A stretch of 64,000 nucleotides of DNA from an uncultured SAR86 cluster bacterium (GCA_902624765.1 CACNYO010000001.1:95645-159644); one strand, 5' to 3'; counted from the first letter of the stretch, positions 5,363-60,880 are shown. The notes: generated by a model from the letters alone, not told the origin. Numbers and translations are program-made.

Positions 5363-8300
5363 GATAATAAGACCTCATTTTCTTTTTTTTACCTTTTTTT
5401 ATTCTTTTTTTTCATCAAATGCCTTAGCCGATACGGAATGTTTTAATCCCAGCAATATAAACACAGTAGGCCCTGCCGGCACAGTATGCGCTGAAATGTT
5501 GATTGTTAGTAAAGCTATGCTGTTGGAAGCTGAAGAGGTAGGTAATGGATCTGACTTTTCAATTTCTTTTGATGGCACGGACTATACTTTTGGTAATTCG
5601 GCCAACAATGTTTTCACGGGACAAATAACAGATTTCAATTATATTTTTAAAGATAAAACTAACTTTAATGCTGATATTGGTTATTGGGATTTAAGAAATG
5701 CTCTTAGTACCCGTTTTATGTTTCAAAGAGCATCGTCCTTCAATCAAAATATAAATAATTGGAATGTAAGCAATGTAATAAACATGCAAGGTATGTTTCA
5801 TTATGCAACTTCTTTTAATCAAGATTTAAATTCTTGGGACGTTTCAAAAGTTGATAATTTAAGAAGTATTTTTCAATCTGCAAAAGTATTCAATGGAAAT
5901 ATATCCTCATGGAACATATCAAATGTCTGGAATCTTGGATATGCATTTGCATCAGCAGAAGCGTTTAACTCTGATATATCAAACTGGGACACCTCAAAGG
6001 TTACTTACTTTGGAAGGACATTTTTAAGTGCCAAAGAATTTAATCAAGATATAGGTAATTGGGATGTTTCAAAAGTCAGAGATTTTAGAAGAGCTTTCCA
6101 AGGGGCAAGTAAATTTAATCAAGATATAGGTAATTGGGATGTTTCATCTTCTACTTTACTCGCCAGAATGTTTAAGCATGCCTCATCTTTCAATCAAGAT
6201 TTAACTTGTTGGAATGTTAAAAATATTTTATCCGAGCCTGCTGCTTTTGGGGGTGCTTCTAATCTTAGTTCTGAGAATAAACCATATTGGGGCGATGATC
6301 CTTGTTCAAAAAATACAACTTTGGATAACTTAACTGTATCGACAGGAATTCTTTCGCCAGAATTTGATAAAGATGAGCTTAGTTATTCCATTGACTACAA
6401 TAATAGTCAAGAGGAAGTGAATTTTTCTTTTTCTAAAAAACATCCAGGAGCAACTCTAACTGTCAACGATCAGCAGGTACTGAACAACCAATATTCTGAT
6501 AGCCTAAATGTTGGCCTGAATGAATTTAAAATCAAGATAACTTCAGAAGATACATCACTTTCAAAAGAATATACGATTTCTGTAACTCGTGAAGCTGGAC
6601 CCGATATTGTGTCTCCCGAAATAAAAAGTCTTGAGACATCAGAAGACGGTTCTCAAATTATTATTGAGGTAAGTGAGCTGCTTAATGAGCAGTCAATACC
6701 TCCAACTTCAAACTTTAACGTCGTTGTAGATAACCTTTCTTATGAAGTCACAAAAACAATCATTGAGGGTATTAAGATCATTTTATCTGTTTCAAAACCA
6801 ATAACTCGAGAAGCAATTGAAGCTGATAAAAATGTGGTTTTAACTTATTCAGCTCCTACAGATAATTCATCAATTAAGGATTTATCAGACAATGAACTGC
6901 CATCATTCAAAATCAAACAAGTTGATAACAAATCAACGATTGACAACACACCACCAGAATTAGTAGATACTAAGCCTTCTGATGACATGCTTAATGTCTC
7001 AACTCAATCAATATTAAATTTGACTTTCTCTGAGAATATTAACCTTTCATCAGGCTCCATAAGACTATACAAAGGTGATGATCGTAGTAATGAACTGATC
7101 AAAACTTTTGAAGCAAGCCCGTCATCAGGAATGCCTTCGGAAATTAAGGTTTTTGAAAATACTGCAGAAATTTACTTATCCGGATATTTAGAGCTTTCGA
7201 ATAAATATTACTTATTAATTGATTCGGATGTATTTATTGACGACGCTGGAAATAAATACTCTGGAATAAATAAGGAAAATCAATTCAACTTTTCAACTCC
7301 CTCGGTTTTATTACATCAATATGAAGTGGGAGAAGAAGGAACTTCTGGAACAGCAAGTATTTCTGGCATCGCTCAATTTTCTGATGGACAGACTGCAGCT
7401 GGAGTTATGGTTAATTTATATAATAGCCAAAACGTAATTATAAAAACCTCGATTACCGATGATACCGGAAGTTATTTCTTTGATGAACTTTCAGAAGATA
7501 CATATAAAGTTGAATTTGTTGGGAATTCTGACTCAAAACTCAAGGGGCAGGCTGATTCAGGAACCGTAGAAGGGAAATTTGTAACGTCTATAGAGGTTTC
7601 TGAGGGAGAGCAAATCTATGGGATTGACGCCGTCTTAATTGATCCTGCGGGCGTTATTTATGATTCAATCTCTAGACAACCTATTAAGGGAGCAACTGTA
7701 GAGCTTAAGTTCAATGGAAATTTAGTAGATAGCTCATGGCTAGATTTAAATCTCGGCGGTCCCAACTCTCAAATCACAGATTCAGATGGACAATATAACT
7801 TTATTCTAAATTCAAACGCAGAAAGCGGGAAGTATTCAATAAATGTTATTCCAATAGATGGATATAAATTCCCAAGTTTATCAATTCCTGCTGAATTAGA
7901 TGCCTATACTCCTAATTTAGGTGGTGGAATTGAGGAGATTCAGCCTCAAGATGAAGCACCAAGCGGCTCAGATCAGACTACTTACTACTTAGATATTAAT
8001 TTTTCCATCACTAATGAAAGCTCTTCAACTTCAAATGGAATTATCAATAATCATATTCCCTTGGATGAAAGCATACCTCCTCTGATTTCAGGTCCTGGTT
8101 TAGAGGATGGAACAATAAATATAAACGAAGGGGATACGCTAGTAGGAAAATTTTCTTCAAATGAATCTGTGTCATGGAGTTTACGCGGAGAGGATAAAAA
8201 CTTGCTTAATTTTGATGCTGAATCAGGAGACTTAGTTTTTCAGAATGTTACTGATTTTGAAAATCCAAATGATACTGATCTAAATAATGAATATCTTGTG

Positions 8301-9521
8301 ACAATCGCGGCTGTTGATAATTTTGGAAATGAAGCATCCATATCTTTGAAAATAATAGTCGAGGATATTATTGATGATCTGATTTCAAAAGTAGAGGAAG
8401 AATTGAGCTCTATTTTAAATAGTGATTTTTCAAGAACCATTGAAACTCAGATGGCGCAATTTTCAAGACAATCCAGAGACTCAATTTATAGACTGGGAAC
8501 TCAAAGAAAAGATTTTGATTGTGGTCCTCAAAAGCAAAGTGATCCTTCATCACTAAATATGGAAGATATTGTTGTAGGAGTGATAGATGCTGTAAATAGC
8601 GGTTCCTTTTCAGGAAATTACTCCAACGAAATATTTAATTGTAAAAATTCATCGATGGACATCATCGAAGGTAACTATTCTATTACCTATGACAAAGATC
8701 TTGGTACCCAATTATTTTTGGGAGGATCATCTCAAAGAGATTTATTTGTAGCCGAAGATTTTCTCTCGGGAGTTTCTTACGGTGGTTATTTGCAAAGAAC
8801 AAATACTGCATCGAGTGGTAAAGGCCATATTAATGGCCTTGGTGGAAATATTGGTTTCTACCAAGCAAGAAAATTTGATCAGTTATATTTGAACTATTAT
8901 GTTTCCGGATCTGTTGGTTATCATCAATATGAAATTTTCGTTGAGGACCCGTTAGAAACAATCAAAACAGAAGGTGCTTATCATTATTTTGCTTCTTTTT
9001 TTGGCTCCTCTTTATCTGGCAAAGTTGAGAGAGAGACTTTCAACTTGAGACCGAGTATTGGTCTAGATATGGCCATTGCAACAGCAAGTGATGCATCTAT
9101 TAAGGCAAAACAATTCTCAACTACTGAAAGAGGAAAATTAGATTTACCTTTTCATGATGGCTATAGATGGTATTCAGAGTTTGCTTTTGATTTTGGAAAC
9201 ATTGCTAACTTGTCAGGCTTTTCAAATAATAATCAAAGATTTGAAATTGCTCCAAGATTCTATTGCGATAATAAACTTAATGGTTCAGGCAATGATTGTG
9301 GCCTGGGTGCTTATTTCAAATATTCATTTGAAGATAATCTTGGGAGTAAAATTCATTTTCAGCTTGATTATGAGGAAACCGATAAGGTTAAAAGAAGTAA
9401 TTTAAAGTTTGGTAGAAAGAATTTGATTCTCAATGGTTTGGGCTCATCTACTACACAGCTAAATATGGATGAGATGGGAAGATTACAGTTAGAATATCTT
9501 TTGGATATATATTTGTTTTAG
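5304..9521 (+). CDS. large surface protein: signal peptide, 8 x 25-aa DUF285/BspA-type repeats, cadherin-like/Ig-like/Cna-B-like passenger domains, C-terminal autotransporter-type beta-barrel
   Basis: Signal-like segment KINRIIRPHFLFFTFFYSFFSSNALA/DT. A GTG at 5346 would give a canonical signal peptide, whereas the ATG at 5304 overlaps the amine oxidase by 59 nt. FNQDIxNWDVSxV repeats are present. LDNLTVSTGILSPEFDKDELSYSIDY is a cadherin-like beta-sandwich motif. DNTPPELVDTKPSD looks like an Ig-like/SbsA-type domain start. DDTGSYFFDELSEDTYKVEF is Cna-B/SdrD-like. NEYLVTIAAVDNFGNEASISLKIIVEDI is cadherin-like. The last ~270 aa show an alternating beta-strand pattern and end in ...LEYLLDIYLF (terminal Phe). 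Confidence 0.6.
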   Translation: MTRTQPSIYRQIAQVIKINRIIRPHFLFFTFFYSFFSSNALADTECFNPSNINTVGPAGTVCAEMLIVSKAMLLEAEEVGNGSDFSISFDGTDYTFGNSANNVFTGQITDFNYIFKDKTNFNADIGYWDLRNALSTRFMFQRASSFNQNINNWNVSNVINMQGMFHYATSFNQDLNSWDVSKVDNLRSIFQSAKVFNGNISSWNISNVWNLGYAFASAEAFNSDISNWDTSKVTYFGRTFLSAKEFNQDIGNWDVSKVRDFRRAFQGASKFNQDIGNWDVSSSTLLARMFKHASSFNQDLTCWNVKNILSEPAAFGGASNLSSENKPYWGDDPCSKNTTLDNLTVSTGILSPEFDKDELSYSIDYNNSQEEVNFSFSKKHPGATLTVNDQQVLNNQYSDSLNVGLNEFKIKITSEDTSLSKEYTISVTREAGPDIVSPEIKSLETSEDGSQIIIEVSELLNEQSIPPTSNFNVVVDNLSYEVTKTIIEGIKIILSVSKPITREAIEADKNVVLTYSAPTDNSSIKDLSDNELPSFKIKQVDNKSTIDNTPPELVDTKPSDDMLNVSTQSILNLTFSENINLSSGSIRLYKGDDRSNELIKTFEASPSSGMPSEIKVFENTAEIYLSGYLELSNKYYLLIDSDVFIDDAGNKYSGINKENQFNFSTPSVLLHQYEVGEEGTSGTASISGIAQFSDGQTAAGVMVNLYNSQNVIIKTSITDDTGSYFFDELSEDTYKVEFVGNSDSKLKGQADSGTVEGKFVTSIEVSEGEQIYGIDAVLIDPAGVIYDSISRQPIKGATVELKFNGNLVDSSWLDLNLGGPNSQITDSDGQYNFILNSNAESGKYSINVIPIDGYKFPSLSIPAELDAYTPNLGGGIEEIQPQDEAPSGSDQTTYYLDINFSITNESSSTSNGIINNHIPLDESIPPLISGPGLEDGTININEGDTLVGKFSSNESVSWSLRGEDKNLLNFDAESGDLVFQNVTDFENPNDTDLNNEYLVTIAAVDNFGNEASISLKIIVEDIIDDLISKVEEELSSILNSDFSRTIETQMAQFSRQSRDSIYRLGTQRKDFDCGPQKQSDPSSLNMEDIVVGVIDAVNSGSFSGNYSNEIFNCKNSSMDIIEGNYSITYDKDLGTQLFLGGSSQRDLFVAEDFLSGVSYGGYLQRTNTASSGKGHINGLGGNIGFYQARKFDQLYLNYYVSGSVGYHQYEIFVEDPLETIKTEGAYHYFASFFGSSLSGKVERETFNLRPSIGLDMAIATASDASIKAKQFSTTERGKLDLPFHDGYRWYSEFAFDFGNIANLSGFSNNNQRFEIAPRFYCDNKLNGSGNDCGLGAYFKYSFEDNLGSKIHFQLDYEETDKVKRSNLKFGRKNLILNGLGSSTTQLNMDEMGRLQLEYLLDIYLF
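5664..6263 (+). repeat. eight tandem 75-nt (25-codon) coding repeats (DUF285 units) inside the surface-protein gene
   Basis: The units begin with FNADIG, FNQNIN, FNQDLN, FNGNIS, FNSDIS, FNQDIG, FNQDIG and FNQDLT at an exact 75-nt period from 5664. Units 6 and 7 share a perfect 35-nt repeat (6037-6071 = 6112-6146). Confidence 0.9.
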
Positions 9522-40620: not shown

Positions 40621-41220
40621 TTGGATTATTTGTGCCTGGATTTTGAGGGAGTTTTGATTCCTGAAATATGGCAAGAAGTCTCCAAGGCAACTGGCATAGA
40701 AGATCTGATGCTAACAACTCAAGATCTTGAGAGTTATGAAGAACTAATGGACATTCGCCTTAAATTAGTTTCCGATAACAACATTACAATCCATGACATT
40801 ATGGAGATTGTTAAAAAAATGGAACCTATGGATGGCGCAGCTGATTTTTTATCTTGGGCAAGAGATAATTTTCAAGTTTCCATTGTTTCAGATACTTTCT
40901 ATGAGTTATGTTGGCCCTTAGTTAGAAAGTTAAACTATCCACATTTGATTTGTCATCATTTAGAGCTTAATGGTTCTGAAATAATCGGCTACAAGTTAAA
41001 GCAAGATAATAATAAACAAAAGGTCATTGAGGCTATTAAGGAAACCATGAAATTTAAAGTTTTTGCTGCTGGAGATTCTTACAACGACATCAATATGTTG
41101 AATTCTGCAGATCAAGGTTTCTTTTTTCAAGCTCCTTCACACATCAAAGAAAAATATCCACATTTAGAAACTATAAAAGATCATAATGAACTTAAGATTA
41201 AGTTAGAGAACTACTTATGA
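40621..41220 (+). CDS. thrH: ThrH-like HAD phosphatase (phosphoserine phosphatase/homoserine phosphotransferase)
   Basis: Collinear with P. aeruginosa ThrH as recalled (CLDLEGVL.PEIW..., ..SDTFYE......L..P.L.CH.LE......GY.L...., AAGDSYND..ML). An AGGAG SD at 40611-40615 precedes the TTG at 40621. The ORF-track ATG at 40591 would overlap cysB by 29 nt. Confidence 0.8.
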   Translation: MDYLCLDFEGVLIPEIWQEVSKATGIEDLMLTTQDLESYEELMDIRLKLVSDNNITIHDIMEIVKKMEPMDGAADFLSWARDNFQVSIVSDTFYELCWPLVRKLNYPHLICHHLELNGSEIIGYKLKQDNNKQKVIEAIKETMKFKVFAAGDSYNDINMLNSADQGFFFQAPSHIKEKYPHLETIKDHNELKIKLENYL

Positions 41221-42074
41221 GCTGGGACAAATTAATAAAAGAGAACAAACCTCTTGTCATAGTAGGAACAATAAATGCTTATTCCGCTCTTTTAGCTGAA
41301 AGGGCGGGCATTCAAGCTATATATCTTTCAGGAGGTGGGGTAGCTAATGCCAGTTACGGACTTCCTGACTTAGCCATGACTTCAAGAGAAGATGTTTTAG
41401 AAGATGTTAGAAGAATAAGGTCTGCTACAAAACTCCCCCTACTAGTGGACATTGATACCGGTTGGGGCTCCGCATTAAGCATTTCTAGGACTATTAAAGA
41501 AATGATATCTGCGGGTGCATCGGGTGTTCACATTGAAGATCAAGTGAGCGAAAAAAGGTGTGGTCATAGACCTAATAAAGAAATAGTTAGTTGTGAAGAA
41601 ATGGTCGATAGAGTCAAAGCAGCAAAAGATGCACAGACTGACGACAATTTCTTGCTCATGGCAAGAACAGATGCATTTGCAAAGGGCGGACTTCAGGAAG
41701 TTATAGATAGATCAAATGCCTTTATAGAGGCAGGAGCAGGAGCTATATTTCCAGAGGCTATTTCAAAGTTAAAAGACTATGAGGAAATTTCAAAGAATGT
41801 ATCCAAGCCCATACTGGCCAATATAACTGAGTTTGGTATGACTCCTCTTTTTTCTCATAATGATCTTGCTGATGCGGGTGTAAAGATTGTTCTGCATCCC
41901 TTATCTGCTTTCAGAGCTATGTCCAAAGCTGCAGAAAAAGTATATGCTACCCTAGCTTCAGGTGGGGACCATGAAGGTTTACTTGATAAAATGCAAACAA
42001 GAGATGAATTGTATGATGTCCTGGATTATCATATGTACGAAGAGAAAATTGATAAACTTTTCGAAAAAAACTAA
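41217..42074 (+). CDS. prpB: methylisocitrate lyase
   Basis: Isocitrate-lyase/PEP-mutase motif IEDQVSEKRCGHRPNKE. 285 aa. Genomic context with prpC and prpD. Confidence 0.92.
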   Translation: MSWDKLIKENKPLVIVGTINAYSALLAERAGIQAIYLSGGGVANASYGLPDLAMTSREDVLEDVRRIRSATKLPLLVDIDTGWGSALSISRTIKEMISAGASGVHIEDQVSEKRCGHRPNKEIVSCEEMVDRVKAAKDAQTDDNFLLMARTDAFAKGGLQEVIDRSNAFIEAGAGAIFPEAISKLKDYEEISKNVSKPILANITEFGMTPLFSHNDLADAGVKIVLHPLSAFRAMSKAAEKVYATLASGGDHEGLLDKMQTRDELYDVLDYHMYEEKIDKLFEKN

Positions 42075-42080
42075 ATAATA

Positions 42081-43205
42081 ATGGCTGAAAAGAAACTAGA
42101 GGGTGCTGGCCTTCGTGGACAGGTAGCTGGACAAACAGCTCTCTCAACCGTTGGAAAAGAAGGAAAAGGACTCACTTACAGAGGATATGCAATTGAGGAA
42201 CTTTCTGAGAAAGCCTCATTTGAAGAGGTTGCTTACATGCTTCTTTATGGGAATTTACCTAACCAATCTCAGTTGAGTGAATACAAGGAAAAATTAAAAA
42301 AATATAGAGAGCTTCCGTCAGAATTAAAAAAAGTACTTGAACTGATTCCTGCATCTGCCCATCCAATGGATGTCCTAAGAACAGGCTGTTCCTTTCTGGG
42401 AAACATAGAACCAGAAGGAGATTTCTCTAATCAAACTGATATTGCTGATAGATTGATATCTATCTTCCCATCAATTGTTTGTTATTGGTATCGTTATTCG
42501 CATGACGGAGTATCAATAGAAACTGCTTCGGACCATGACTCTATTGGAGGTCACTTTCTTTCAATGCTTACAGGGAAAGAACCGAGTGAAGATCACTCAA
42601 GATGTTTAGATGTTTCTTTAATTCTCTATGCTGAACACGGATTCAATGCTTCAACTTTTACTGCTAGAACATGTGCCTCAACTTTGTCAGATCTTCATTC
42701 TTGTATCACTGGGGCTATTGGCACTCTAAGGGGGCCTCTTCATGGAGGTGCTAACGAAGCTGCGATGGAAATGATAGAAAAATTTTCTTCCAGAGAAGAC
42801 GCTAATGCTGGTGTGAAAAAAATGTTAGAAGCTAAAGAGAAAATAATGGGTTTCGGACATGCGGTTTACACTTCAGAGGATCCAAGAAGCGATATTATCA
42901 AGTCATGGGCTAAAAGATTAAGCGAACAGAATGGAGACGATACTCTTTATCAAGTCTCCGAAGAGATTGATAAAGTTATGGATGAAGAAAAAAATCTATT
43001 TCCAAATACTGACTTTTATATGGCATCAGCATATTCATACTTAGGCATTCCCACAAAAATTTTTACTCCCTTGTTTGTCATAGGCAGGACTTCAGGTTGG
43101 TCCGCAAATATCATTGAGCAAAGAGCTGATAATAGAATCATCCGACCCAGCGAGGAATATATTGGACCTGAAAAATCTGATTGGGTCGATATAGAAAATA
43201 GATAA
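42081..43205 (+). CDS. prpC: 2-methylcitrate synthase
   Basis: Citrate-synthase family (GPLHGGANE, GFGHAVY), 374 aa, flanked by prpB and prpD. Confidence 0.9.
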   Translation: MAEKKLEGAGLRGQVAGQTALSTVGKEGKGLTYRGYAIEELSEKASFEEVAYMLLYGNLPNQSQLSEYKEKLKKYRELPSELKKVLELIPASAHPMDVLRTGCSFLGNIEPEGDFSNQTDIADRLISIFPSIVCYWYRYSHDGVSIETASDHDSIGGHFLSMLTGKEPSEDHSRCLDVSLILYAEHGFNASTFTARTCASTLSDLHSCITGAIGTLRGPLHGGANEAAMEMIEKFSSREDANAGVKKMLEAKEKIMGFGHAVYTSEDPRSDIIKSWAKRLSEQNGDDTLYQVSEEIDKVMDEEKNLFPNTDFYMASAYSYLGIPTKIFTPLFVIGRTSGWSANIIEQRADNRIIRPSEEYIGPEKSDWVDIENR

Positions 43206-43212
43206 ACTTCAT

Positions 43213-44658
43213 ATGTCTTCAAACGTAGATCAAAATGTACGTCCTGATTTTGATGAATTAATTCAAAAGATTTCAGACTACTCCCAAAGCGATAATCAAT
43301 TTAATGACCTTGCCATGGAAACGGCAAGGTATTGCTTAATGGATACTTTGGGATGTGGTCTATTAGCTCTTACTTTTGATGACTGCAAAAAGATGCTTGG
43401 TCCTTTTGCAGATGATGTAAAAGTTAAAAATGGCGTAAGAGTTCCCGGAACAAACTTCGTCCTTGATCCCGTTAAAGGTGCTTGGGATATAGGAGCAATT
43501 ATAAGATGGTTGGATTTTAATGACACATGGTTGGCTGCTGAATGGGGACATCCATCAGATAATTTAGGCGGCATTTTGGCTGCTGCTGATTACATCTCTC
43601 AGCAAAATAGAGAAAATAATAAAGAACCTTTAAAGATGAAGGCAGTATTGGAAAGCATGATCAAGGCCCATGAAATTCAAGGAGTTTTAGCAATAAAAAA
43701 TAGCTTTAACCGAGTAGGCTTAGATCATGTTCTTCTCGTTAAACTTGCATCGACATCTGTCATAGCAAAATTATTTGGACTCTCGAAAGAGCAATCTTTA
43801 GATGCTATTTCACAAGTTTTCGTTGATGGTCAAAGTTTAAGAACTTATCGACATGCACCTAACGCTGGTCCAAGGAAATCTTGGGCTGCTGGAGATGCTA
43901 CCAGTAGAGCAATGCAGCTAGTTTTATTTACTTTAAGAGGTCAAATTGGTTATCCGAGCGCAATAACTGCAAAAACATGGGGCTTTCAGGATGTCTTATT
44001 TAAAGGTAAAGATTTGATTGTCGAACAAGACTTTAATTCTTATGTGATGGAAAATATTTTATTTAAAATATCTTTCCCAGCTGAATTTCATGCCCAAACT
44101 GCAGTTGAAGCAGCCGTGAGACTTCATCCGGAAATTAAAGACAGATTGGATGAAATTCAGCAAATTAAAATCACAACTCATGAGTCAGCAATCAGGATTA
44201 TCAGTAAAGAGGGTGAATTGAATAATCCAGCCGATAGAGATCATTGCCTCCAATATATGACTGCCATTGGATTGTTGAAGGGAGATCTAGTTGCTGAGGA
44301 TTATGAAGATGATGTTGCAAGCGATCCTAGAATTGATGAGTTGAGACAGAAAATGCTGATTGAAGAGGATAAAAGATACTCAGCTGAGTATCATGAACCC
44401 GATAAAAGATCTATTTCTAATGCATTGCAAATCATTTTTAAAGACGGAAGTTCAACAGAAAAGATTGAGGTTGAATATCCAATTGGTCATAAATTCAGGC
44501 GAGAAGAGGGTATTCCAATTCTCTTAGAAAAATTCAAAAGAAACCTACTTACTCAGTTTGATGAAGAAAAAACAAATCAGATTTTTGAGTTATGTCAGGA
44601 TAAAGACAAGCTTCTGGATACTCCTGTAGACGAATTCATGGGGATGTTGGCTAAATAA
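43213..44658 (+). CDS. prpD: 2-methylcitrate dehydratase
   Basis: MmgE/PrpD family, 481 aa, in the prpB-prpC-prpD context. Confidence 0.9.
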   Translation: MSSNVDQNVRPDFDELIQKISDYSQSDNQFNDLAMETARYCLMDTLGCGLLALTFDDCKKMLGPFADDVKVKNGVRVPGTNFVLDPVKGAWDIGAIIRWLDFNDTWLAAEWGHPSDNLGGILAAADYISQQNRENNKEPLKMKAVLESMIKAHEIQGVLAIKNSFNRVGLDHVLLVKLASTSVIAKLFGLSKEQSLDAISQVFVDGQSLRTYRHAPNAGPRKSWAAGDATSRAMQLVLFTLRGQIGYPSAITAKTWGFQDVLFKGKDLIVEQDFNSYVMENILFKISFPAEFHAQTAVEAAVRLHPEIKDRLDEIQQIKITTHESAIRIISKEGELNNPADRDHCLQYMTAIGLLKGDLVAEDYEDDVASDPRIDELRQKMLIEEDKRYSAEYHEPDKRSISNALQIIFKDGSSTEKIEVEYPIGHKFRREEGIPILLEKFKRNLLTQFDEEKTNQIFELCQDKDKLLDTPVDEFMGMLAK

Positions 44659-45310
44659 TTCTTTCGCAATCAATCTCTAAATATTTGCAAAGTTCTTTAA
44701 TTGATTCAATATGATCAACAACCTTTATGGTAGTCATCCCTAAAGCTTTTGCTGGTTTGAGATTAATTCCCAGATCGTCAAGAAAAATTACCTCTGCAGG
44801 GTCACAACCCGTCATGGTAAGAGCAATTTCATAAAATTTATCTTCTGGTTTTCTGACTCCAACTTCTCTTGATTCAATGATGTAATCAAAAAGTCCAAGG
44901 ATCTTCTGCCTCTCTTGATTGTTATTATCTAGGGCTGACTTATCTTCGTTTGCATTAAAATTATTAGTCAAACAAGCCAACAAAAACGACTCTTCCTTAA
45001 GTACTTCAAGCATGTTTACCATTTCAGGAACAACACTTCCTTGCAACAGCTCAAGAATTTTGGATCCCTCAATCTTAAAGCCTAGATTCTCACTTTCTAA
45101 GGCGAATAATTTATCAAAATCTTCCAAAGATATTTTTGAGGACTCTAGTTTTGCCCATGCATTTTCGTAAGGATTTGTTGAATTGACCTTCCTGATAAAA
45201 TCTTTTGGCAAATTATTTTCTTTCTCAAAGCTAGAAAAAGCTTGGAAAGGACTTGAAGTTATTACTCCACCAAAATCCCAAAATACAGCCTTAAATTTTT
45301 TGTCTATCAT
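44651..45310 (-). CDS. HAD-superfamily hydrolase (epoxide-hydrolase N-terminal-domain-like phosphatase)
   Basis: HAD motif I at FWDFGGVIT and motif IV-like FLDDLGINL. The ATG at 45310 (MIDKKFKAVF...) is preferred over the TTG-extended ORF reaching 45361. Confidence 0.75.
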   Translation of the reverse strand: MIDKKFKAVFWDFGGVITSSPFQAFSSFEKENNLPKDFIRKVNSTNPYENAWAKLESSKISLEDFDKLFALESENLGFKIEGSKILELLQGSVVPEMVNMLEVLKEESFLLACLTNNFNANEDKSALDNNNQERQKILGLFDYIIESREVGVRKPEDKFYEIALTMTGCDPAEVIFLDDLGINLKPAKALGMTTIKVVDHIESIKELCKYLEIDCERII

Positions 45311-45334
45311 TTCTGTTTTTAAAGGGTATAAGCG

Positions 45335-45340
45335 TATAAT
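45335..45340 (+). promoter_or_regulatory. candidate -10 hexamer for aroC and the downstream gene string
   Basis: Perfect TATAAT 20 nt upstream of the aroC ATG in a 50-bp divergent spacer. No convincing -35 element. Confidence 0.3.
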
Positions 45341-45360
45341 CGTGCAGTTTATTTTAAGCA

Positions 45361-46458
45361 ATGAGTGGAAATAGTATAGGTAAATCTTTCACCATAACTA
45401 CTTTTGGTGAAAGTCATGGAAAAGCACTGGGGTGCATCATAGATGGATGCCCTCCAGGGATTACTATTTCTGAACAAGATATTCAAGTTGAACTAGATAA
45501 AAGAAGGCCAGGCTCGAATGCATTTACAACGCAAAGAAGTGAAAAAGACAAGGTTCAAATACTCTCAGGTATTTTTGAAGGGAAAACTACAGGCACCCCT
45601 ATTGGAATGATTATTTTCAATGAGGATCAGAAAAGTGAAGACTACGATAATTTGAAAGATGTTTTTCGTCCATCTCATGCTGACTACACTTATTTAAAGA
45701 AATATGGATTGAGGGATCACCGAGGAAGCGGTAGAGCTTCTGCAAGAGAAACCGTGATGAGAGTTGCTGCTGGAGCCATTGCAAAAAAATATTTGAAAGA
45801 TCATCTAGCAGTTGAAATAACTGGTTATGTTGAACAAGTAGGAGAAATAATTGCAGATCAAATTGATCTTAAAGAGATCAATAACAATGCTTTCTTTTTT
45901 CCTGACGTAACAAAATTGAAATCTTTAGAAGATCTTATTAGCTCTTTGAGAGAAGCAGGAGATTCTGTCGGTGCAAAAATAAAAATTAATGTGAATAACG
46001 TTCCAGCAGGTTTGGGAGAACCTGTATTTGATAAGTTGGATGCTGATTTAGCTCATGGTTTGATGAGTATTAATGCAGTTAAAGGAGTTGAATTAGGGCT
46101 AGGATTTGATGTTGTTTCAAAAAAAGGAAGCGAACATAGAGATGAGATAGATCGAGATGGATTTGCTTCTAACAATGCAGGCGGAATTTTGGGTGGTATT
46201 TCTTCAGGCCAGCCGATAGATATTGCAATTGCTTTAAAACCTACATCGAGTATCAGGACAGAAGGTAAAACTGTCGATAAATCTGGAAAAGAAACAACTG
46301 TTCAATCAATTGGTCGTCACGACCCATGTGTTGGCCTGAGAGCTGTCCCAATAGCTGAGTCCATGGTTGCAATAATTTTATTGGATCATTATCTGAGAAA
46401 TCGCGCTCAAAATAATGATGTAGAAAACTCATCTTATACGATTCCTACAAGTGAATAA
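45361..46458 (+). CDS. aroC: chorismate synthase
   Basis: [20 protein letters not shown], 365 aa. Confidence 0.95.
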
Positions 46459-48507: not shown

Positions 48508-49565
48508 AAGAAATTGATTTACTTCTTTTAAGCGGTGATGGCGTAGGTCCAGAAGTAATGGAAAGTGCGATTTCTTTGCTTGAAAAAATCCAATCAAGTT
48601 TCAAGATTAACTTCAATTTGATCGAAGGTCTTATCGGTGGAGCTTCAATTGATGCTCATGGACTACCAGTATCAGATGAAACTTTGAATCAAGCATCTCA
48701 AGCAGACTCAATCTTATTTGGTGCAGTAGGAGGTCCTAAATGGGATTCACTTCCTCCTAATGAAAAACCTGAAAAAGGGTTGTTAGAACTAAGATCTTCA
48801 TTAGGCCTGTTTGCAAATCTAAGGCCTGCAATTTTATTTGATAGTTCCTTGGAAGCATCATCCTTAAAGCCCGGTATCATAAAAGATCTTGATATGCTTA
48901 TCGTAAGAGAGCTCACAGGTGGTATATATTTTGGTGAGCCTAGAGAAAAAAAATCATCTTCTGCTTTTAATACAATGATTTATGAAAGGCATGAAGTTGA
49001 AAGAATTGCCAGAGTTGCTTTTGATTCTGCATCCTTAAGAAATAAAAAAGTTTGTTCAGTTGATAAATCAAACGTTCTTGAAGTGTCTGAATTTTGGAGG
49101 GAAGTTGTAATAGATGTGTCAAAAGATTATCCAGATATAGAACTAAGTCATATGCTTGTCGACAACGCTGCCATGCAGCTTGTGAAAAACCCTAAACAAT
49201 TTGATGTCATTCTTTCAAGCAACTTATTTGGGGATATCCTCTCTGATATTTCTGCAATGCTTACTGGATCTATCGGAATGCTTCCTTCTGCTTCCTTGGA
49301 TAACAGAAATAAAGGGCTGTATGAACCAGTTCATGGCAGTGCTCCTGATATCGCAGGACAAGGAACAGTAAACCCAATCGCAATGATTCTGTCAGTTGGG
49401 ATGATGTTTAGGTATTCACTTAATCAATTAGAGATATCAGAAAAGATTAAAAGCGCAGTCTCAAAAACTCTTGATGATGGATACGCTACTAAAGATATTG
49501 CTGATAAGAATAGTAAAATTTGTTCAACTAAAGAATTAACAAAAATAATTATCGATCATGTCTAA
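48504..49565 (+). CDS. leuB: 3-isopropylmalate dehydrogenase
   Basis: LSGDGVGPEV, NLFGDILSD, GLYEPVHGSAPDIAG. Confidence 0.95.
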   Translation: MKEIDLLLLSGDGVGPEVMESAISLLEKIQSSFKINFNLIEGLIGGASIDAHGLPVSDETLNQASQADSILFGAVGGPKWDSLPPNEKPEKGLLELRSSLGLFANLRPAILFDSSLEASSLKPGIIKDLDMLIVRELTGGIYFGEPREKKSSSAFNTMIYERHEVERIARVAFDSASLRNKKVCSVDKSNVLEVSEFWREVVIDVSKDYPDIELSHMLVDNAAMQLVKNPKQFDVILSSNLFGDILSDISAMLTGSIGMLPSASLDNRNKGLYEPVHGSAPDIAGQGTVNPIAMILSVGMMFRYSLNQLEISEKIKSAVSKTLDDGYATKDIADKNSKICSTKELTKIIIDHV

Positions 49566-50769
49566 TATTAAGTTAGCAATAGTAGGCGCCACAGGTGCGG
49601 TTGGGCGAGAATTTTTGAGAATTCTTGCAGAACAGCAGTTTCCCGCTGAAAATCTTTTTTTGGTTGCTTCATCTAAATCTGCAGGTAAGGCAATTAAATA
49701 TTTTGAAAAAATTATAGAAATTGAAGATCTTCAACTTTTCGATTTTAGTAAAGCTAGCGTTGCATTTTTTTCAGCTGGATCATCAGTTGCTGAATCTCAC
49801 GCATCTCAAGCTATCGAGAAAGGTTGCACTGTCATAGATAATTCATCTTTTTTTAGAAACAGAGACGATCTTGAACTCATTGTTCCTGAAGTAAATGGAT
49901 CTAGATTGGAGGATCTTAATTTGCCTGCAATAATTGCTAATCCAAATTGTTCCACTGCTCAAATGGTAGTTGCTCTAAAGCCTTTTCATGATCTGTTTAA
50001 TATAAAAAGAGTAGACGTTGCTACTTATCAATCAGTATCAGGAACAGGACAATCAGCCTCAGAAGAACTAAAAGAACAATCTCGAAAAATTCTCGATGGT
50101 GAAGAACATTCTAATAATGTTTACCCAGTGCAAATAGCTTTCAATGCATTGCCTCTTGCTGGCGACATCTTAGAAAATAATTATTCAGAAGAAGAAATGA
50201 AACTTACGACTGAGACAAAGAAGATATTTTCTGATGACATTGAGGTATCAGCAACATGCGTAAGAGTTCCAGTTCAAAGAGGTCATGGAGAGGTCATACA
50301 CTTGGAAACAGAAAAAGAAATTAATTTAGAAGAAGTTAAAGATTCAATTAATAATCAGAATGGACTCATACTATGTGATTCTGATGAAGATTTTTTCCCA
50401 ACCCCAGTTACTCATGCTGAAAAATCTAATGAAGTATTTATAGGTAGATTAAGAAAGGATTTATGGAAGGACAATAGGGCTAATTTTTGGATTGTCTCTG
50501 ATAATTTAAGAAAAGGAGCAGCTTGGAATAGTTACCAAATTCTTTCTTTACTCATTAAAAATAAGTCGCATGAATTGCTCAATGATGAATATGCAGAAGT
50601 TGGTGATCCTATTGATGCAAGATTAAATTTAGCTGTTAGTTATATCGAAATGGGAAAAGCATACGATGCAAAAGCTATCATTTATGAGGTTTTTGATTTA
50701 AGTCCTAATTTTGAACAAAAAAATAAAGCCGATACTCTTCTTCAAAAGATAAATGATCAAGGAAGTTAA
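49558..50769 (+). CDS. asd: aspartate-semialdehyde dehydrogenase with a ~65-aa C-terminal extension carrying a FimV C-terminal-type motif
   Basis: VGATGAVG, the active-site Cys in IANPNCSTAQ (which distinguishes it from USG-1), RVPVQRGHG, and DNLRKGAAWNSYQI near the normal C-terminus (~aa 335). The ORF then continues in frame: ...DPIDARLNLAVSYIEMGKAYDAKAIIYEVFDLSPNFEQKNKADTLLQKIN. Confidence 0.9.
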   Translation: MSNIKLAIVGATGAVGREFLRILAEQQFPAENLFLVASSKSAGKAIKYFEKIIEIEDLQLFDFSKASVAFFSAGSSVAESHASQAIEKGCTVIDNSSFFRNRDDLELIVPEVNGSRLEDLNLPAIIANPNCSTAQMVVALKPFHDLFNIKRVDVATYQSVSGTGQSASEELKEQSRKILDGEEHSNNVYPVQIAFNALPLAGDILENNYSEEEMKLTTETKKIFSDDIEVSATCVRVPVQRGHGEVIHLETEKEINLEEVKDSINNQNGLILCDSDEDFFPTPVTHAEKSNEVFIGRLRKDLWKDNRANFWIVSDNLRKGAAWNSYQILSLLIKNKSHELLNDEYAEVGDPIDARLNLAVSYIEMGKAYDAKAIIYEVFDLSPNFEQKNKADTLLQKINDQGS

Positions 50770-51556
50770 GAAGTACGCGCTTGGGTTAGAGTACATAGGT
50801 ACAAATTTAAAAGGCTGGCAAAGACAAAAAAAGGGTCAAATAACCGTTCAAGATATCGTTGAAAAATCACTATCAAAATTTCTTGATCAGAAAATATTAA
50901 CAATTTGCTCAGGGAGAACTGATTCCGGTGTCCATGCATTGAATCAAACTGTGCATTTTGAGACAAGCAAAAGTAGAACTAATGAATCTTTCCTCAAGGG
51001 GCTTAATTCTTTAATGGGGACTCAAGTTAAAGCAATTTGGATAAAAAAAGTTGATAAAGATTTTAGTGCAAGATTTTCAGCTATTAAAAGAAGATATAGG
51101 TACGTCATTGAAGAAAGATCATCTGGTTCCGTTTTTTCGAGTAATTATTCTTTATCTGTTCAAAAGAGAATTAATGTTAGTAAGTTAAAAAAAGCTTCTA
51201 AATTTTTAATCGGAGAAAATAATTTTAGTTCATTTCGTTCATCTTCATGTCAATCTCAAAGTCCTTTTAGAAATATTGAATCAATTAAAATTTTAAGGAA
51301 GGGAGAATTTATTTTTTTTGATATTACTGGGAATGCATTTTTACATAATATGATAAGAATTATTATGGGTACCCTTATTATGATATCCGATGATAATTTA
51401 AATCCAGATATTATGAAAGAAATCCTAGCTGCTAAAGACAGAAACTTAGCAGGTAAAACAATTTCGTCTAAAGGATTATTTTATTTTGGACCCGAATATC
51501 CTAAAGAAATGAAAATACCTTGTATCAATTTTGAACATAGTTCATTTATATTTTGA
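50753..51556 (+). CDS. truA: tRNA pseudouridine(38-40) synthase
   Basis: LEYIGTNLKGWQRQ and the catalytic GRTDSGVHA. Confidence 0.93.
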   Translation: MIKEVKKYALGLEYIGTNLKGWQRQKKGQITVQDIVEKSLSKFLDQKILTICSGRTDSGVHALNQTVHFETSKSRTNESFLKGLNSLMGTQVKAIWIKKVDKDFSARFSAIKRRYRYVIEERSSGSVFSSNYSLSVQKRINVSKLKKASKFLIGENNFSSFRSSSCQSQSPFRNIESIKILRKGEFIFFDITGNAFLHNMIRIIMGTLIMISDDNLNPDIMKEILAAKDRNLAGKTISSKGLFYFGPEYPKEMKIPCINFEHSSFIF

Positions 51557-56837: not shown

Positions 56838-58304
56838 ATGTGCGGCGTAGTTGGAATTGTCTCAAAAAATGAAGTTGCTTCAGATCTTTATGAGGCTCTA
56901 ACGGTTATTCAACATCGAGGACAAGATGCGGCCGGCATAGCTACTTCAGAAGAAAAAAGAGTAAATTCAAGAAAACAACTAGGCCTTGTAAGGGAGGTCT
57001 TTAGAGAGCATCACATACAATCTCTTTTAGGGAAAATTGGCATTGCTCATGTTAGATATCCTACTTCCGGCGGCGCCTCAAGAGAATTAGCGCAACCTAT
57101 GTATGTAAATTCGCCATATGGGATAAGCATTGTCCATAATGGGAATCTAGTTAATACAGATTCATTGTGCGCAGAGCTTGCAGAGACAGACAGAAGGCAC
57201 TTAAATACAAATTCAGACTCCGAAGTTATCCTTAATATTTTTGCCCATGAACTTCAGCAAATCGGAAGTATACAGCCCACAAAGGAAGAAATTTTTGAAG
57301 CTGTTGGAAGAATGCAATCAAGATTATCCGGAGCATACTCAATAATAATGATGATCAATGATGTGGGGTTAGTTGCTGTAAGAGATCCTCATGGAATAAG
57401 ACCTTTAATAATTGGAAAAAGAGATGAGGATCTTATGGGGGCAGAATATATGATTGCATCTGAAAGCGCAGCTATTGATGCTCTTGATTTCAAGGTTATC
57501 GATGATGTTGGAGCGGGAGAAGCAATATTCATTTCAAAAGAAGGAAAAATGAGTAGATCAAAATCCCATAAAACAGCAAATCATAGCCCTTGTATTTTTG
57601 AATATGTTTACTTAGCTAGACCAGATTCTGTTATTGATAAAGTTTCAGTTCACAAGGCAAGACAGAGAATGGGAATATATCTTGGCGAAAAAATACTTAG
57701 TTTGCATCCAAAGCATGACATAGATGTAGTTATACCTATCCCCGAAAGTAGCACGACTTCAGCAAACGAAGTAGCAAAAAAGCTCGGATTACCTTATAGA
57801 GAAGGCTTTGTTAAAAATAGATACATTGGGAGAACCTTTATCATGCCAAAGCAGGAAATGCGAAAAAAATCCGTAAAGAGGAAATTAAATCCAATAACCA
57901 TGGAATTTGAAGGTAAAAATGTTCTTCTAGTAGATGATTCAATTGTTAGAGGTACAACTAGCAAACAAATAGTAGAAATGGCTAGAGATGCGGGAGCAAA
58001 AAAAGTCTTTTTTGCATCTGCCGCTCCACCAATTAGATTTCAAAACGTTTATGGAATTGATATGGCAGCAACTGCTGAGTTAATAGCTCATCAAAAAGAT
58101 GAAAGTCAAATAGCAGAATATATAGGAGCAGACTGGTTAGTTTATCAAGATCTAAAAGATTTAATTAGAAGTGCAAAAGAGGGAAATAAAGATATAGAGA
58201 ACTTTGAAACCTCTATTTTTGATGGTGAATATTTAGATAATCAAGTATCTGATGGCTATCTAGAAAACTTAGAGGTTATGAGATCTGATTCAAATAAAAT
58301 TTAG
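56838..58304 (+). CDS. purF: amidophosphoribosyltransferase
   Basis: MCGVVGI Ntn-amidotransferase N-terminus and PRPP loop [11 protein letters not shown]. Confidence 0.96.
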
Positions 58305-60880
58305 TTTGTTTCAATGGTAACTGCAGGGAGTTTTGCATTATCGGCTGCATCCTTATAGCTTTTTATCTCATTGAAATTCATGTATCTAAAAATATCAGCA
58401 GACATCGTATTGATCTCAGACATAAAGCTCTGATATTCATCATTGGATGGAAGTTTTCCTAAGATTGATGCAATAGCAGCCAGTTCTGCTGAAGCAAGAT
58501 AAACATCGGCGCCGTCTCCAAGCCTATTTGGAAAGTTTCTTGTTGAGGTTGAAACGACAGTTGAATTTGGTTCAACTCTGGCTTGATTACCCATACAAAG
58601 AGAGCATCCAGGAATCTCTGTTCTTACACCAGCTTTTTCAAAAATATCATAAAAGCCTTCTTGTTCTAATTGAAACTTATCCATTCTTGTTGGTGGAGAT
58701 ATCCATAATCTAGTTGGTAAGGAAGTAGCATCTTTCAAGAGTTTTCCAGCAGCCCTAAAATGACCAATGTTCGTCATACAAGAACCAATGAAGACCTCAT
58801 CAATTTTATCCTCTCCAATATCAGAAAGCGTTTTTATGTCGTCTGGATCATTTGGACAGGCTAAAAGAGGTTCCCTTATTTCGTTTAGATCAATTTCAAT
58901 AGTAGCTGCATATTTGGCATTTTGATCTGGTTTAAGTAGAAAAGGATTTTCGATCCACTGTTCCATTTTTTGAGCTCTTCTTTCCAAAGTTCTTGCATCT
59001 CCGTATCCCTCTGAGATAAGCCATCTAAGTAAAACTATATTCGATTTAAGATATTCTAAAATTGGTTCTTCTTCTAAAAGAACAGTACATCCAGATGCAG
59101 ACCTTTCAGCAGAAGCATCAGATAATTCAAAAGCTTGTTCAATTTTTAAATTTGGTAATCCTTCTATTTCGAGACACCTTCCAGAGAAAATATTTTTCTT
59201 ACCCTCTTTCTCGACTGTAAGTAAGCCTCTTTGGATTGCTGCATAAGGAATAGCATTTACAAGATCTCTAAGAGTTATTCCAGGTTGCATTTCTCCGGAA
59301 AATCTTACCAAAACCGATTCGGGCATATCTAAAGGAATTACTCCAAGTGCTGCACCAAAAGCGACAAGACCAGATCCAGCTGGAAAACTTATCCCAATTG
59401 GAAATCTTGTATGAGAATCTCCCCCAGTTCCAACCGTATCGGGTAGCAACATTCTATTCAACCAAGAGTGAATAATGCCATCACCTGGCTTCAAAGCTAC
59501 TCCTCCACGCGTTTTGATGAACTCAGGTAAGGTATGTTGCGTTTCTACGTCTACAGGCTTTGGATAAGCTGCAGTATGACAGAACGATTGCATCACTAAA
59601 TCTGAAGTGAATCCCAGGCAAGCTAATTCCTTAAGTTCATCTCTTGTCATTGGTCCAGTTGTATCTTGAGATCCTACTGTAGTCATAATCGGCTCACAAT
59701 AAGTGCCAGGTCTAATTCCTTCAACACCGCAAGCTTTACCAACAATTTTTTGCGCTAGAGTGTAACCATCAGTTGATTCGTCAGTTTTTCCAGGTCTCAC
59801 AAAGACATCTGAAGCAGGTAGATTTAAAAAATCTCTTGCTTTATCGGTTAGGCTTCTACCAATTATTAAAGGTATTCTGCCTCCAGCTCTTACTTCATCA
59901 AGAAAAGTTTCTGACTTAAGTTCAAATGAGGAAATATTTTCTGAGCTCTCATTTTCTACTTTGCCTTCATGAGGGTATATTGTTATGACATCTCCTGTTT
60001 CCATTTTTTCTACATCTGCTTCAAATACAAGAGTCCCAGCATCCTCCATTGTGTTAAAGAATATTGGAGCAATTTTACCGCCTATACATATACCACCTGT
60101 TCTTTTATTTGGGATGAAAGGAATATCCTCTCCCATATGCCATAAAACAGAGTTTGTTGCAGACTTTCTTGATGAGCCAGTACCAACAACATCACCTACA
60201 AGACAAACTGGATGACCTTTATCCTTTAATTTTTGTATTTCTCCTAGAGGATCGTTTGATAATCCTTGTCTCTGCATTTTATACATCGCTAAAGCATGTA
60301 ATGGAATATCAGGTCTTGACCAAGCATCTGGAGCAGGAGAAAGATCATCGGTGTTAGTCTCTCCGGGCACTTTAAAAACTGTTGTGGTAATAGATTGAGG
60401 CACTTCTGGTTTAGATGTAAACCACTCCGCTTCTGCCCATGAATCTAAAACTTTTTTTGCATTTTGAGAGCTTTTTGATTTTTCTGCTATGTCATTAAAT
60501 GCATCGAAAACTAATAAAGTTTGTGACAATGCTTTCACAGCCTCATCTCCACATTCATCATCATCAAGAAGACTAATTAATGGTTCGACATTATAGCCAC
60601 CCAGCATTGTTCCAAGGTAAAAAGTAGCTTTTATAGGATCAATCAAGTCACACTTTATCTTTTTAGACGCAATATCGTTAAGAAAAGCAGCTTTTATGTA
60701 GGCAGCATCATCAACTCCAGCTGGAACTCTATTTATTAAAAGGTTCAAGAGGATTTCTCCTTGGTCTGAATTTTCTTTTATTAATTCAACAAGGTCAGCA
60801 GTTTGTTCAGCATCAAGTGGTTCTGGCGGGATGCCAAGCTCAGCTCTCTCTTTTTCAATTTTTTTGTATGCTTCTAACAT
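58301..60880 (-). CDS. acnB: bifunctional aconitate hydratase 2/2-methylisocitrate dehydratase
   Basis: 859 aa with an AcnB-specific N-terminal HEAT-like domain ([22 protein letters not shown]) and Fe-S ligand regions ([18 protein letters not shown]). Confidence 0.95.

Follow-up and report, generated by a model that had tools for sequence, protein, structure and literature searches.

The window, a 64,000-nucleotide stretch of the genome of an uncultured SAR86 cluster bacterium (GCA_902624765.1, CACNYO010000001.1:95645-159644), contains a gene for aspartate-semialdehyde dehydrogenase (asd, encoding Asd) that continues in frame, past the usual end of the enzyme, into a segment resembling the C-terminus of FimV. 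The open reading frame (ORF; 49558..50769, + strand) comprises 1212 nucleotides with one stop only (terminal) and encodes 403 amino acids; the segment flagged by the original prediction, which had been made from the sequence alone (50560-50769), corresponds to codons 335-403 plus the stop. The gene order around it is prpB-prpC-prpD-HAD(-)-aroC-leuC-leuD-leuB-asd-truA-trpF-trpB-trpA-accD-folC-cvpA-purF-acnB(-). Neither the ORF list nor the sequence holds a separate fimV gene in the asd-truA interval of the window and, as synteny with relatives also indicates, the preserved order and the missing fimV were correctly recognized at the outset.

The first 336 residues (49558..50565, + strand) constitute the Asd catalytic core, with NAD(P)-binding and dimerisation domains, Cys131 in NPNCST and His243 in RGHG. 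The models NF011456 (406.6 bits, cutoff 223, amino acids 3-336) and TIGR01296 (asd_B; 394.1 bits, cutoff 324.2, end to end) were matched well above their thresholds, both Pfam Asd domains (PF01118 and PF02774) were found, and the scores for two further Asd-named equivalog models (NF004224 and NF005957) stayed under their cutoffs. The three motifs NPNCST, RVPVQRGHG and DNLRKGAAWN are all present, so that the core is complete, as proposed, and would normally end near residue 335-340: the other complete Asd proteins (among the 120 best of 8000 Asd matches) measure 331-355 amino acids, nearly all of them 331-344. With 403 residues the window Asd lies outside the canonical length of ~330-345 by virtue of a 67-residue C-terminal extension. 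Judged by its sequence, the window protein is an Asd family member (of predicted activity) that bears a domain of the FimV_Cterm family.

FimV/HubP proteins have been studied as large polar hubs connected with pili, flagella, chemotaxis arrays and chromosome segregation. The extension begins with the junction and an acidic linker (amino acids 337-350, 50566..50607, + strand; SHELLNDEYAEVGD), homologous to the acidic linker (DEVLDEEFGEIGN) that follows the transmembrane helix in the shortened FimV of relatives (mini-FimV, described below), and goes on to a FimV/HubP C-terminal domain (amino acids 351-400, 50608..50757, + strand) made of one tetratricopeptide repeat (TPR; helices 351-364 and 368-381) and a capping helix (385-400). 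The hidden Markov model (HMM) TIGR03504 (FimV_Cterm) matched the tail alone over its entire length (33.7 bits, E 2.8e-8, model positions 1-44 of 44) and above its curated cutoff of 30.65, which substantiates the motif assignment of the original prediction; against the whole 403-residue protein the score dropped to 28.0 bits (E 1.7e-6), under the same cutoff. Pfam returned only weak, sub-threshold TPR_6/TPR_8 matches on the tail.

The predicted fold agrees with this assignment. An AlphaFold2 model of the tail (alignment of 24 sequences; predicted local distance difference test score, pLDDT, 86.4) has three helices following a short N-terminal one and, when searched with Foldseek against 350,542 PDB chains, placed the TPR3 of Pseudomonas aeruginosa FimV (4MAL, 4MBQ) at all of ranks 1-6, with a root-mean-square deviation of 1.0-1.1 A over 46-50 columns, 34-35% identity and a TM(target) of 0.71-0.90. 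The E-values of these matches are weak (0.035-0.13) because the domain has only ~50 residues; 4MAL was also the best match of the tail in a phmmer search of the PDB sequences (E 0.11). The full-length model (pLDDT 90.9; P0128 and P0132, which misaligned onto the Asd core, were excluded from its alignment) combines a confident Asd core (above 90) with residues 338-348 below 50 and a module at 83-91 (83-96 with the model of the tail alone included), so the structure prediction suggested earlier yields a confident module behind a low-confidence linker. The tail thus looks like a tethered, independently folding domain, although the output comes without inter-domain error estimates and docking of the tail on the core is also compatible with the model.

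Taken together, the HMM, the predicted fold and the orthology to the end of fimV in the asd-truA slot identify the tail as a FimV/HubP C-terminal domain, located at the extreme C-terminus (amino acids 351-400 of 403) of a protein encoded between asd and truA. The other parts of FimV were looked for as well: FimV_core/LysM models (TIGR03505, PF25800) had no match in the window protein, tblastn recovered no FimV_core-like sequence anywhere in the 64-kb window, and no transmembrane segment was recognized in the protein (Kyte-Doolittle hydropathy over 19 residues peaks at 0.56 for the tail and at 1.28 for the protein as a whole, while the FimV transmembrane helices of relatives reach 2.1-3.1). Because both the peptidoglycan-binding domain and the transmembrane helix are absent, the window protein does not qualify as a FimV/HubP landmark protein.

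The fused gene recurs in other genomes. A scan of one genome per GTDB species brought up 12 SAR86-cluster genomes (mostly single-cell, otherwise metagenome-assembled), 11 of which carry the complete gene, while in one the contig stops within it; protein identity to the window copy is 97-100%, and all 11 complete copies form an unbroken 1212-nucleotide ORF (95-98% nucleotide identity), which together with the window makes 12 genomes. The corresponding 90%-identity protein cluster holds 572 distinct sequences, named by their sources only 'aspartate-semialdehyde dehydrogenase', and the complete ones among the members listed all have 403 residues. A tryptic peptide spanning the Asd/tail junction would read SHELLNDEYAEVGDPIDAR.

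When the tail by itself served as query, gene calls (64 and 85 amino acids) that contain nothing but the tail came up too (P0121-P0125). We considered them as a separate mini-ORF and, having inspected ten contigs, rejected this reading, for they go back to adapters, N gaps or isolated base differences: some tail contig ends keep the Nextera adapter AGATGTGTATAAGAGACAG (the 'MCIRDS' at the start of P0121 is its translation), other tail-only calls stem from scaffolds with 10-100 N inside asd, and in two short single contigs isolated single-base differences create stops within the Asd core. Every contig inspected can be read through from the Asd C-terminal helix into the tail, and none of the relatives shows a stop at the junction. 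This excludes an assembly or frameshift artefact, and the tail shares a continuous translation frame with Asd.

As an observation in its own right, the Nextera transposase adapter was met at the ends of several public metagenome contigs (L021, L022, L024, L027, L028; P0121, P0239), where, if retained, it yields in-frame stops and spurious small ORFs beginning MCIRDS or MCIRDR.

The nearest tail-less Asd proteins are 54-59% identical to that of the window and are surrounded by an identical gene order, and comparison of their asd-truA interval, as the original prediction had suggested, uncovered a separate full, mini or micro fimV in relatives and confined the fusion to the window clade. The slot gene encodes a FimV of 567 amino acids in a gammaproteobacterium (L035) and of 414 in a further Asd relative (L036), both with a Pfam FimV_N match. 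In three SAR86 sequences (L016, L018, P0329) it encodes the mini-FimV of 310-314 amino acids, composed of an N-terminal hydrophobic segment (clear in L016), FimV_core (TIGR03505, 42-57 bits), a transmembrane helix (~213-233), an acidic linker and FimV_Cterm (33-38 bits). Other SAR86 contigs (L029:6019-6354, L031:6018-6335, L032:3566-3868) bear a micro-FimV of merely 100-111 amino acids, reduced to a few N-terminal residues, one transmembrane helix, a linker and the C-terminal motif, and in the window clade the slot gene is gone and the FimV motif is fused to Asd. The 100-residue form populates hundreds of marine metagenome clusters (proteins P0134-P0242) under source names such as hypothetical protein, 'ATP-dependent Zn protease' or 'thioredoxin-like negative regulator of GroEL'; as it reaches at most 21 bits on TIGR03504, under the cutoff, it goes unseen by standard annotation. 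However much of FimV was lost, the same motif is retained in every sampled SAR86 lineage.

Aligned with the C-termini of the 310-residue type, the tail shows 44% and 39% identity (39-46% over all comparisons), and 22-37% with the micro forms; G..NLA..EM..A..K is invariant across the tail, mini- and micro-FimV. A tblastn comparison of the L016 FimV with the window gave a match for residues 250-310 alone (50572-50754, E 2e-12), and nothing of FimV_core or of the transmembrane helix is left. The junction runs ...QILSLLIKNK followed by SHELLNDEYAEVGDP..., with the breakpoint at about IKNK/SHELL; its left side resembles the Asd ends of relatives (...RLIEKQN or ...RLLSK before the stop) and its right side matches the linker behind the transmembrane helix (DEVLDEEFGEIGNP). 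In relatives asd and fimV already overlap by 14-20 nucleotides, and the old 3' boundary of fimV, a tight overlap or abutment with truA, is kept in the window as in L016 (where fimV and truA overlap by 8 nucleotides), L018, L029, L031 and L032. These comparisons indicate that the tail is a fimV remnant left by a deletion, as had been supposed, and the simplest history would be one in-frame deletion of ~0.7 kb that began at the asd stop and ended near codon 247-250 of a mini-fimV. A tree of concatenated LeuB, Asd, TruA and TrpF places the window clade on a long branch, at 45-50% amino-acid divergence from all sampled relatives; its deep split (54% bootstrap) is compatible with either a 310- or a 100-residue ancestor, and the similarity of tail and linker would favour an ancestor of the 310-residue type. 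The names of the clade's single-cell genomes had no match among those given for the SAR86 families of Ramfelt et al.

Two sets of candidates were set aside along the way: P0128, P0132 and P0133 (65-69 amino acids), taken up as free C-terminal domains, are contig-end truncations of the 310-residue mini-FimV, and P0130 and P0131 (100 amino acids, near the L018 type), taken up as an independent loss of the periplasmic domain, were dismissed since the full mini-fimV of L034 is interrupted by a 100-N gap.

A 128-residue query across the junction, searched exhaustively with phmmer, revealed no other Asd-FimV fusion among 1.84 billion representative proteins, the clade's own P0243 being the only one to span the junction. 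Considering that a match to both halves would rank near the top, other Asd-FimV_Cterm fusions must be rare or absent in public data. Full-text literature searches turned up no description of an Asd-FimV fusion or of FimV in SAR86. The suggestion of a new Asd architecture accordingly held, and this architecture, together with the reduced mini- and micro-FimV forms, appears to be undescribed, while its component parts are known. Three proteins taken up as further Asd fusions (P0244, P0245, P0250) were rejected, as they carry tandemly duplicated Asd C-termini and no FimV motif; in them the C-terminal ~60-170 Asd residues occur twice, probably as assembly artefacts.

Nucleotide variation within the clade was used to compare the constraint on tail and core. 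Pooled Nei-Gojobori estimates from the 12 genomes gave a proportion of synonymous differences (pS) of 0.12 and a ratio of non-synonymous to synonymous proportions (pN/pS) of 0.048 for the core, and a pS of 0.16 and a pN/pS of 0.029 for tail codons 337-397 (which leave out the truA overlap). Across 22 tail sequences, which fall into 14 nucleotide haplotypes and 3 protein variants, the distinct changes numbered 22 synonymous versus 2 non-synonymous, at 36 synonymous and 147 non-synonymous sites (binomial P against neutrality 5e-14); the resulting omega-like ratio, 0.022 for the tail versus 0.065 for the core, does not differ significantly between the two (Fisher P 0.25). The 13 full-length protein variants differ at 4 of 67 tail columns and at ~34 of 336 core columns, and the linker (amino acids 337-350) shows zero non-synonymous change in the 12 genomes at a pS of 0.27. 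The tail is under purifying selection, with a constraint like that of the catalytic core, and since synonymous sites vary freely it is the protein that is constrained and not some overlapping signal in the nucleotides. Neutral evolution of the tail, named at the outset as the mark of a pure scar, was thus not what we found. A deeper selection argument comes from the motif itself, as no other part of FimV is common to all the SAR86 lineages sampled.

The Asd of the fusion clade differs at five columns that are the same in 90% or more of 41 other Asd proteins, namely T210S (50185-50187), M216L (50203-50205), D225S (50230-50232), S244G (50287-50289) and L323W (50524-50526). S244G adjoins the catalytic His243 and L323W lies in the C-terminal helix right before the tail; these changes could reflect co-adaptation to the tail or merely the long branch of the clade.

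We reason that the clade descends from a SAR86 cell in which ~0.7 kb were deleted in frame, most likely taking the asd stop along with most of an already miniaturised fimV: the signal/anchor, the FimV_core that binds peptidoglycan in the periplasm, and the transmembrane helix. The reading frame of Asd thereby ran on into the cytoplasmic end of FimV, giving a normal core followed by a flexible acidic linker (~12 residues) and a free-folding module of a single TPR plus cap. Because the deletion took exactly the exported and membrane parts, the cytoplasmic module landed on a cytoplasmic enzyme, and the product, both partners being cytoplasmic, is topologically sound. Asd enzymes are homodimers, and for this reason the module should be shown in two copies per enzyme, a display that would make it bivalent. 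The module probably still acts as an adaptor for a putative cytoplasmic partner unrelated to pili, membrane anchoring having become dispensable in the clade: it would keep the job conserved in all SAR86 lineages, the binding of a cytoplasmic partner protein, for which neither a pilus nor (in the window clade) a membrane anchor would be needed, and Asd would serve mainly as a stable, constitutively expressed carrier. Selection for partner binding would then underlie the constraint on the tail. In P. aeruginosa the C-terminal module of FimV is a site at which the protein FimL binds (bioRxiv 10.1101/116954). SAR86 genomes are reported to be devoid of genes for pili, flagellin, chemotaxis and motility (Dupont et al., PMC3358033) and the first SAR86 isolate is a non-motile coccobacillus (PMC11582366); as published SAR86 genomes are without pili and flagella genes, a role of the module would probably be independent of pili, and the original suspicion of a cell without type IV pili agrees with these reports. 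Two further reports indicate pilus-independent roles for some members of the FimV family (PMC11620751, PMC7214476).

Several points weigh against this explanation. The absence of pili is reported for published SAR86 genomes, while the window covers 64 kb of the genome at issue, and partner binding is proposed from sequence and a predicted fold. The soluble cytoplasmic FimV domain of P. aeruginosa alone phenocopies a fimV deletion (bioRxiv 10.1101/116954), and loss of the anchor would abolish any function that consists in recruiting a partner to the membrane or the pole. Purifying selection could reflect only the need of the tail to stay folded and harmless on an essential enzyme; the fusion clade being shallow (pS ~0.12-0.16), selection has tested the fused state only briefly. 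For the micro-FimVs, which fall below the TIGR03504 cutoff, homology depends on synteny and the shared motif.

Foremost among the alternatives, though in our estimate rather unlikely, the tail could be a passenger scar, an accident of genome streamlining whose functionless product is kept since a misfolded or degron-like C-terminus would harm an essential enzyme and a clean deletion has yet to occur. A deletion fusing adjacent, overlapping genes is the simplest route to such an outcome, the clade is young (pS 0.12-0.16), the membrane anchor retained by all other forms is gone from the module, and no second fusion of the kind turned up among the 1.84 billion representatives. A useless appendage, however, is hard to reconcile with a tail omega (~0.02-0.03) as low as that of the catalytic core (~0.05-0.065), with the lack of any truncation (22 tail sequences and the members listed for the cluster of 572), or with a fused tail whose fit to the FimV_Cterm model surpasses that of the free micro-FimVs. 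The motif is also the one piece kept by all sampled SAR86 lineages across 45-50% protein divergence, and a genome compact enough for gene overlaps of 8-26 nucleotides would be expected to shed 200 useless bases. Thus, of the two options originally offered (a scar that happened to stay in frame, or a motif retained under selection), the second is favoured by the 22 versus 2 changes, by an omega no higher than that of the core and by the presence of the motif in every lineage.

The module may instead have been neofunctionalised as an appendage that serves the enzyme (its stability, oligomerisation, regulation or localisation) and no longer has a FimV role, a possibility we regard as doubtful. 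The clade-specific L323W before the tail and S244G beside the catalytic His243 give a hint of it, not proof, since they could come from the long branch, and the equal constraint on tail and core would fit; the tail, however, has stayed near the ancestral FimV_Cterm consensus and is modelled (with the caveat on inter-domain error given above) as a separate module behind a low-confidence linker. More speculative still would be a module that represents the minimal functional core of FimV/HubP, with a housekeeping role unrelated to pili or flagella, the Asd fusion then being a Rosetta-stone hint to the aspartate-semialdehyde/diaminopimelate branch that feeds peptidoglycan synthesis; if true, such a core would explain the retention of the motif in every pilus-less SAR86 lineage, and the diaminopimelate link would rationalise the widespread asd-fimV adjacency in Gamma- and Betaproteobacteria.

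Two further explanations are highly improbable. A missed stop, frameshift or chimeric assembly, with the tail really a separate small ORF or untranslated, is what the public tail-only gene calls would suggest, but all of these trace to the adapters, N gaps or single-base differences described above, the junction frame is open throughout, and twelve independent genome assemblies and many metagenome contigs share the 403-residue ORF. A generic TPR-like or low-complexity extension unrelated to FimV would fit the sub-threshold Pfam matches and the weak Foldseek E-value (0.035), but not the full-length, above-cutoff match to TIGR03504, the FimV TPR3 identity of the six best PDB chains or the 39-46% identity to mini-FimV C-termini at the orthologous position.

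SAR86 is among the most abundant bacterial groups of the surface ocean. In every sampled lineage it retains the last ~50 residues of FimV, whether in a 310-residue protein, in a membrane-tethered stub of 100 residues or welded to an essential enzyme, and this natural deletion series points to the indispensable part of FimV in an abundant group reported to be pilus-less. An adaptor module of the kind we favour predicts a pilus-independent partner, which becomes searchable now that a SAR86 isolate exists. The locus also offers a clean, datable case of genome streamlining making a new domain architecture on an essential enzyme and, given that standard annotation overlooks both the tail and the micro-FimVs, bears on how SAR86 genomes are annotated.

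Gene packing around the fusion is tight. The start of truA (50753..51556, + strand) overlaps the end of the fusion ORF by 17 nucleotides (50753-50769), so that the latter ends, with its three final codons (QGS) and TAA stop (50758..50769, + strand), inside the 5' end of truA; leuB and asd overlap by 8 nucleotides (49558-49565), and truA and trpF by up to 26 (51531-51556) if trpF really starts at the TTG at 51531. The 217-residue trpF ORF may be over-extended, since in close relatives trpF is called with 208 residues and begins after truA. Directly upstream of aroC lies a methylcitrate-cycle cluster (41217-45361) with a prpB-like member of the phosphoenolpyruvate mutase/isocitrate lyase family, a prpC-like citrate synthase and prpD, succeeded by a haloacid dehalogenase (HAD) hydrolase on the minus strand; acnB (aconitase B, 58301-60880) is found downstream of purF, and the largest ORF of the window encodes 1405 amino acids (5304-9521, + strand).

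Set against known systems, the enzyme part shares with Asd of the asd_B type (TIGR01296/NF011456) the full-length match, the catalytic Cys and His, strong purifying selection and the place after leuB, and departs from it by the 67-residue extension with its foreign domain, which no other Asd carried among the 120 best of 8000 matches or the 1.84 billion representatives. The extension resembles the TPR3 of P. aeruginosa FimV (4MAL/4MBQ, TIGR03504) in HMM family, predicted fold, C-terminal cytoplasmic place and a gene between asd and truA, whereas in the window the module sits on a soluble enzyme, in a group reported to be without pili and chemosensory systems. Vibrio HubP, TspA and TapV have the C-terminal FimV domain in common with the window protein but are large, membrane-anchored, peptidoglycan-bound hubs; having neither an anchor nor a peptidoglycan-binding domain, the window protein cannot be a landmark protein in the HubP sense. 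The mini- and micro-FimVs of SAR86, separate genes with a transmembrane helix (both of which the window clade lost), share with the fused tail the orthologous position, the linker, the motif E.GDPI.ARLNLA.SYIEM...A and the trend of stripping FimV down to its C-terminal module.

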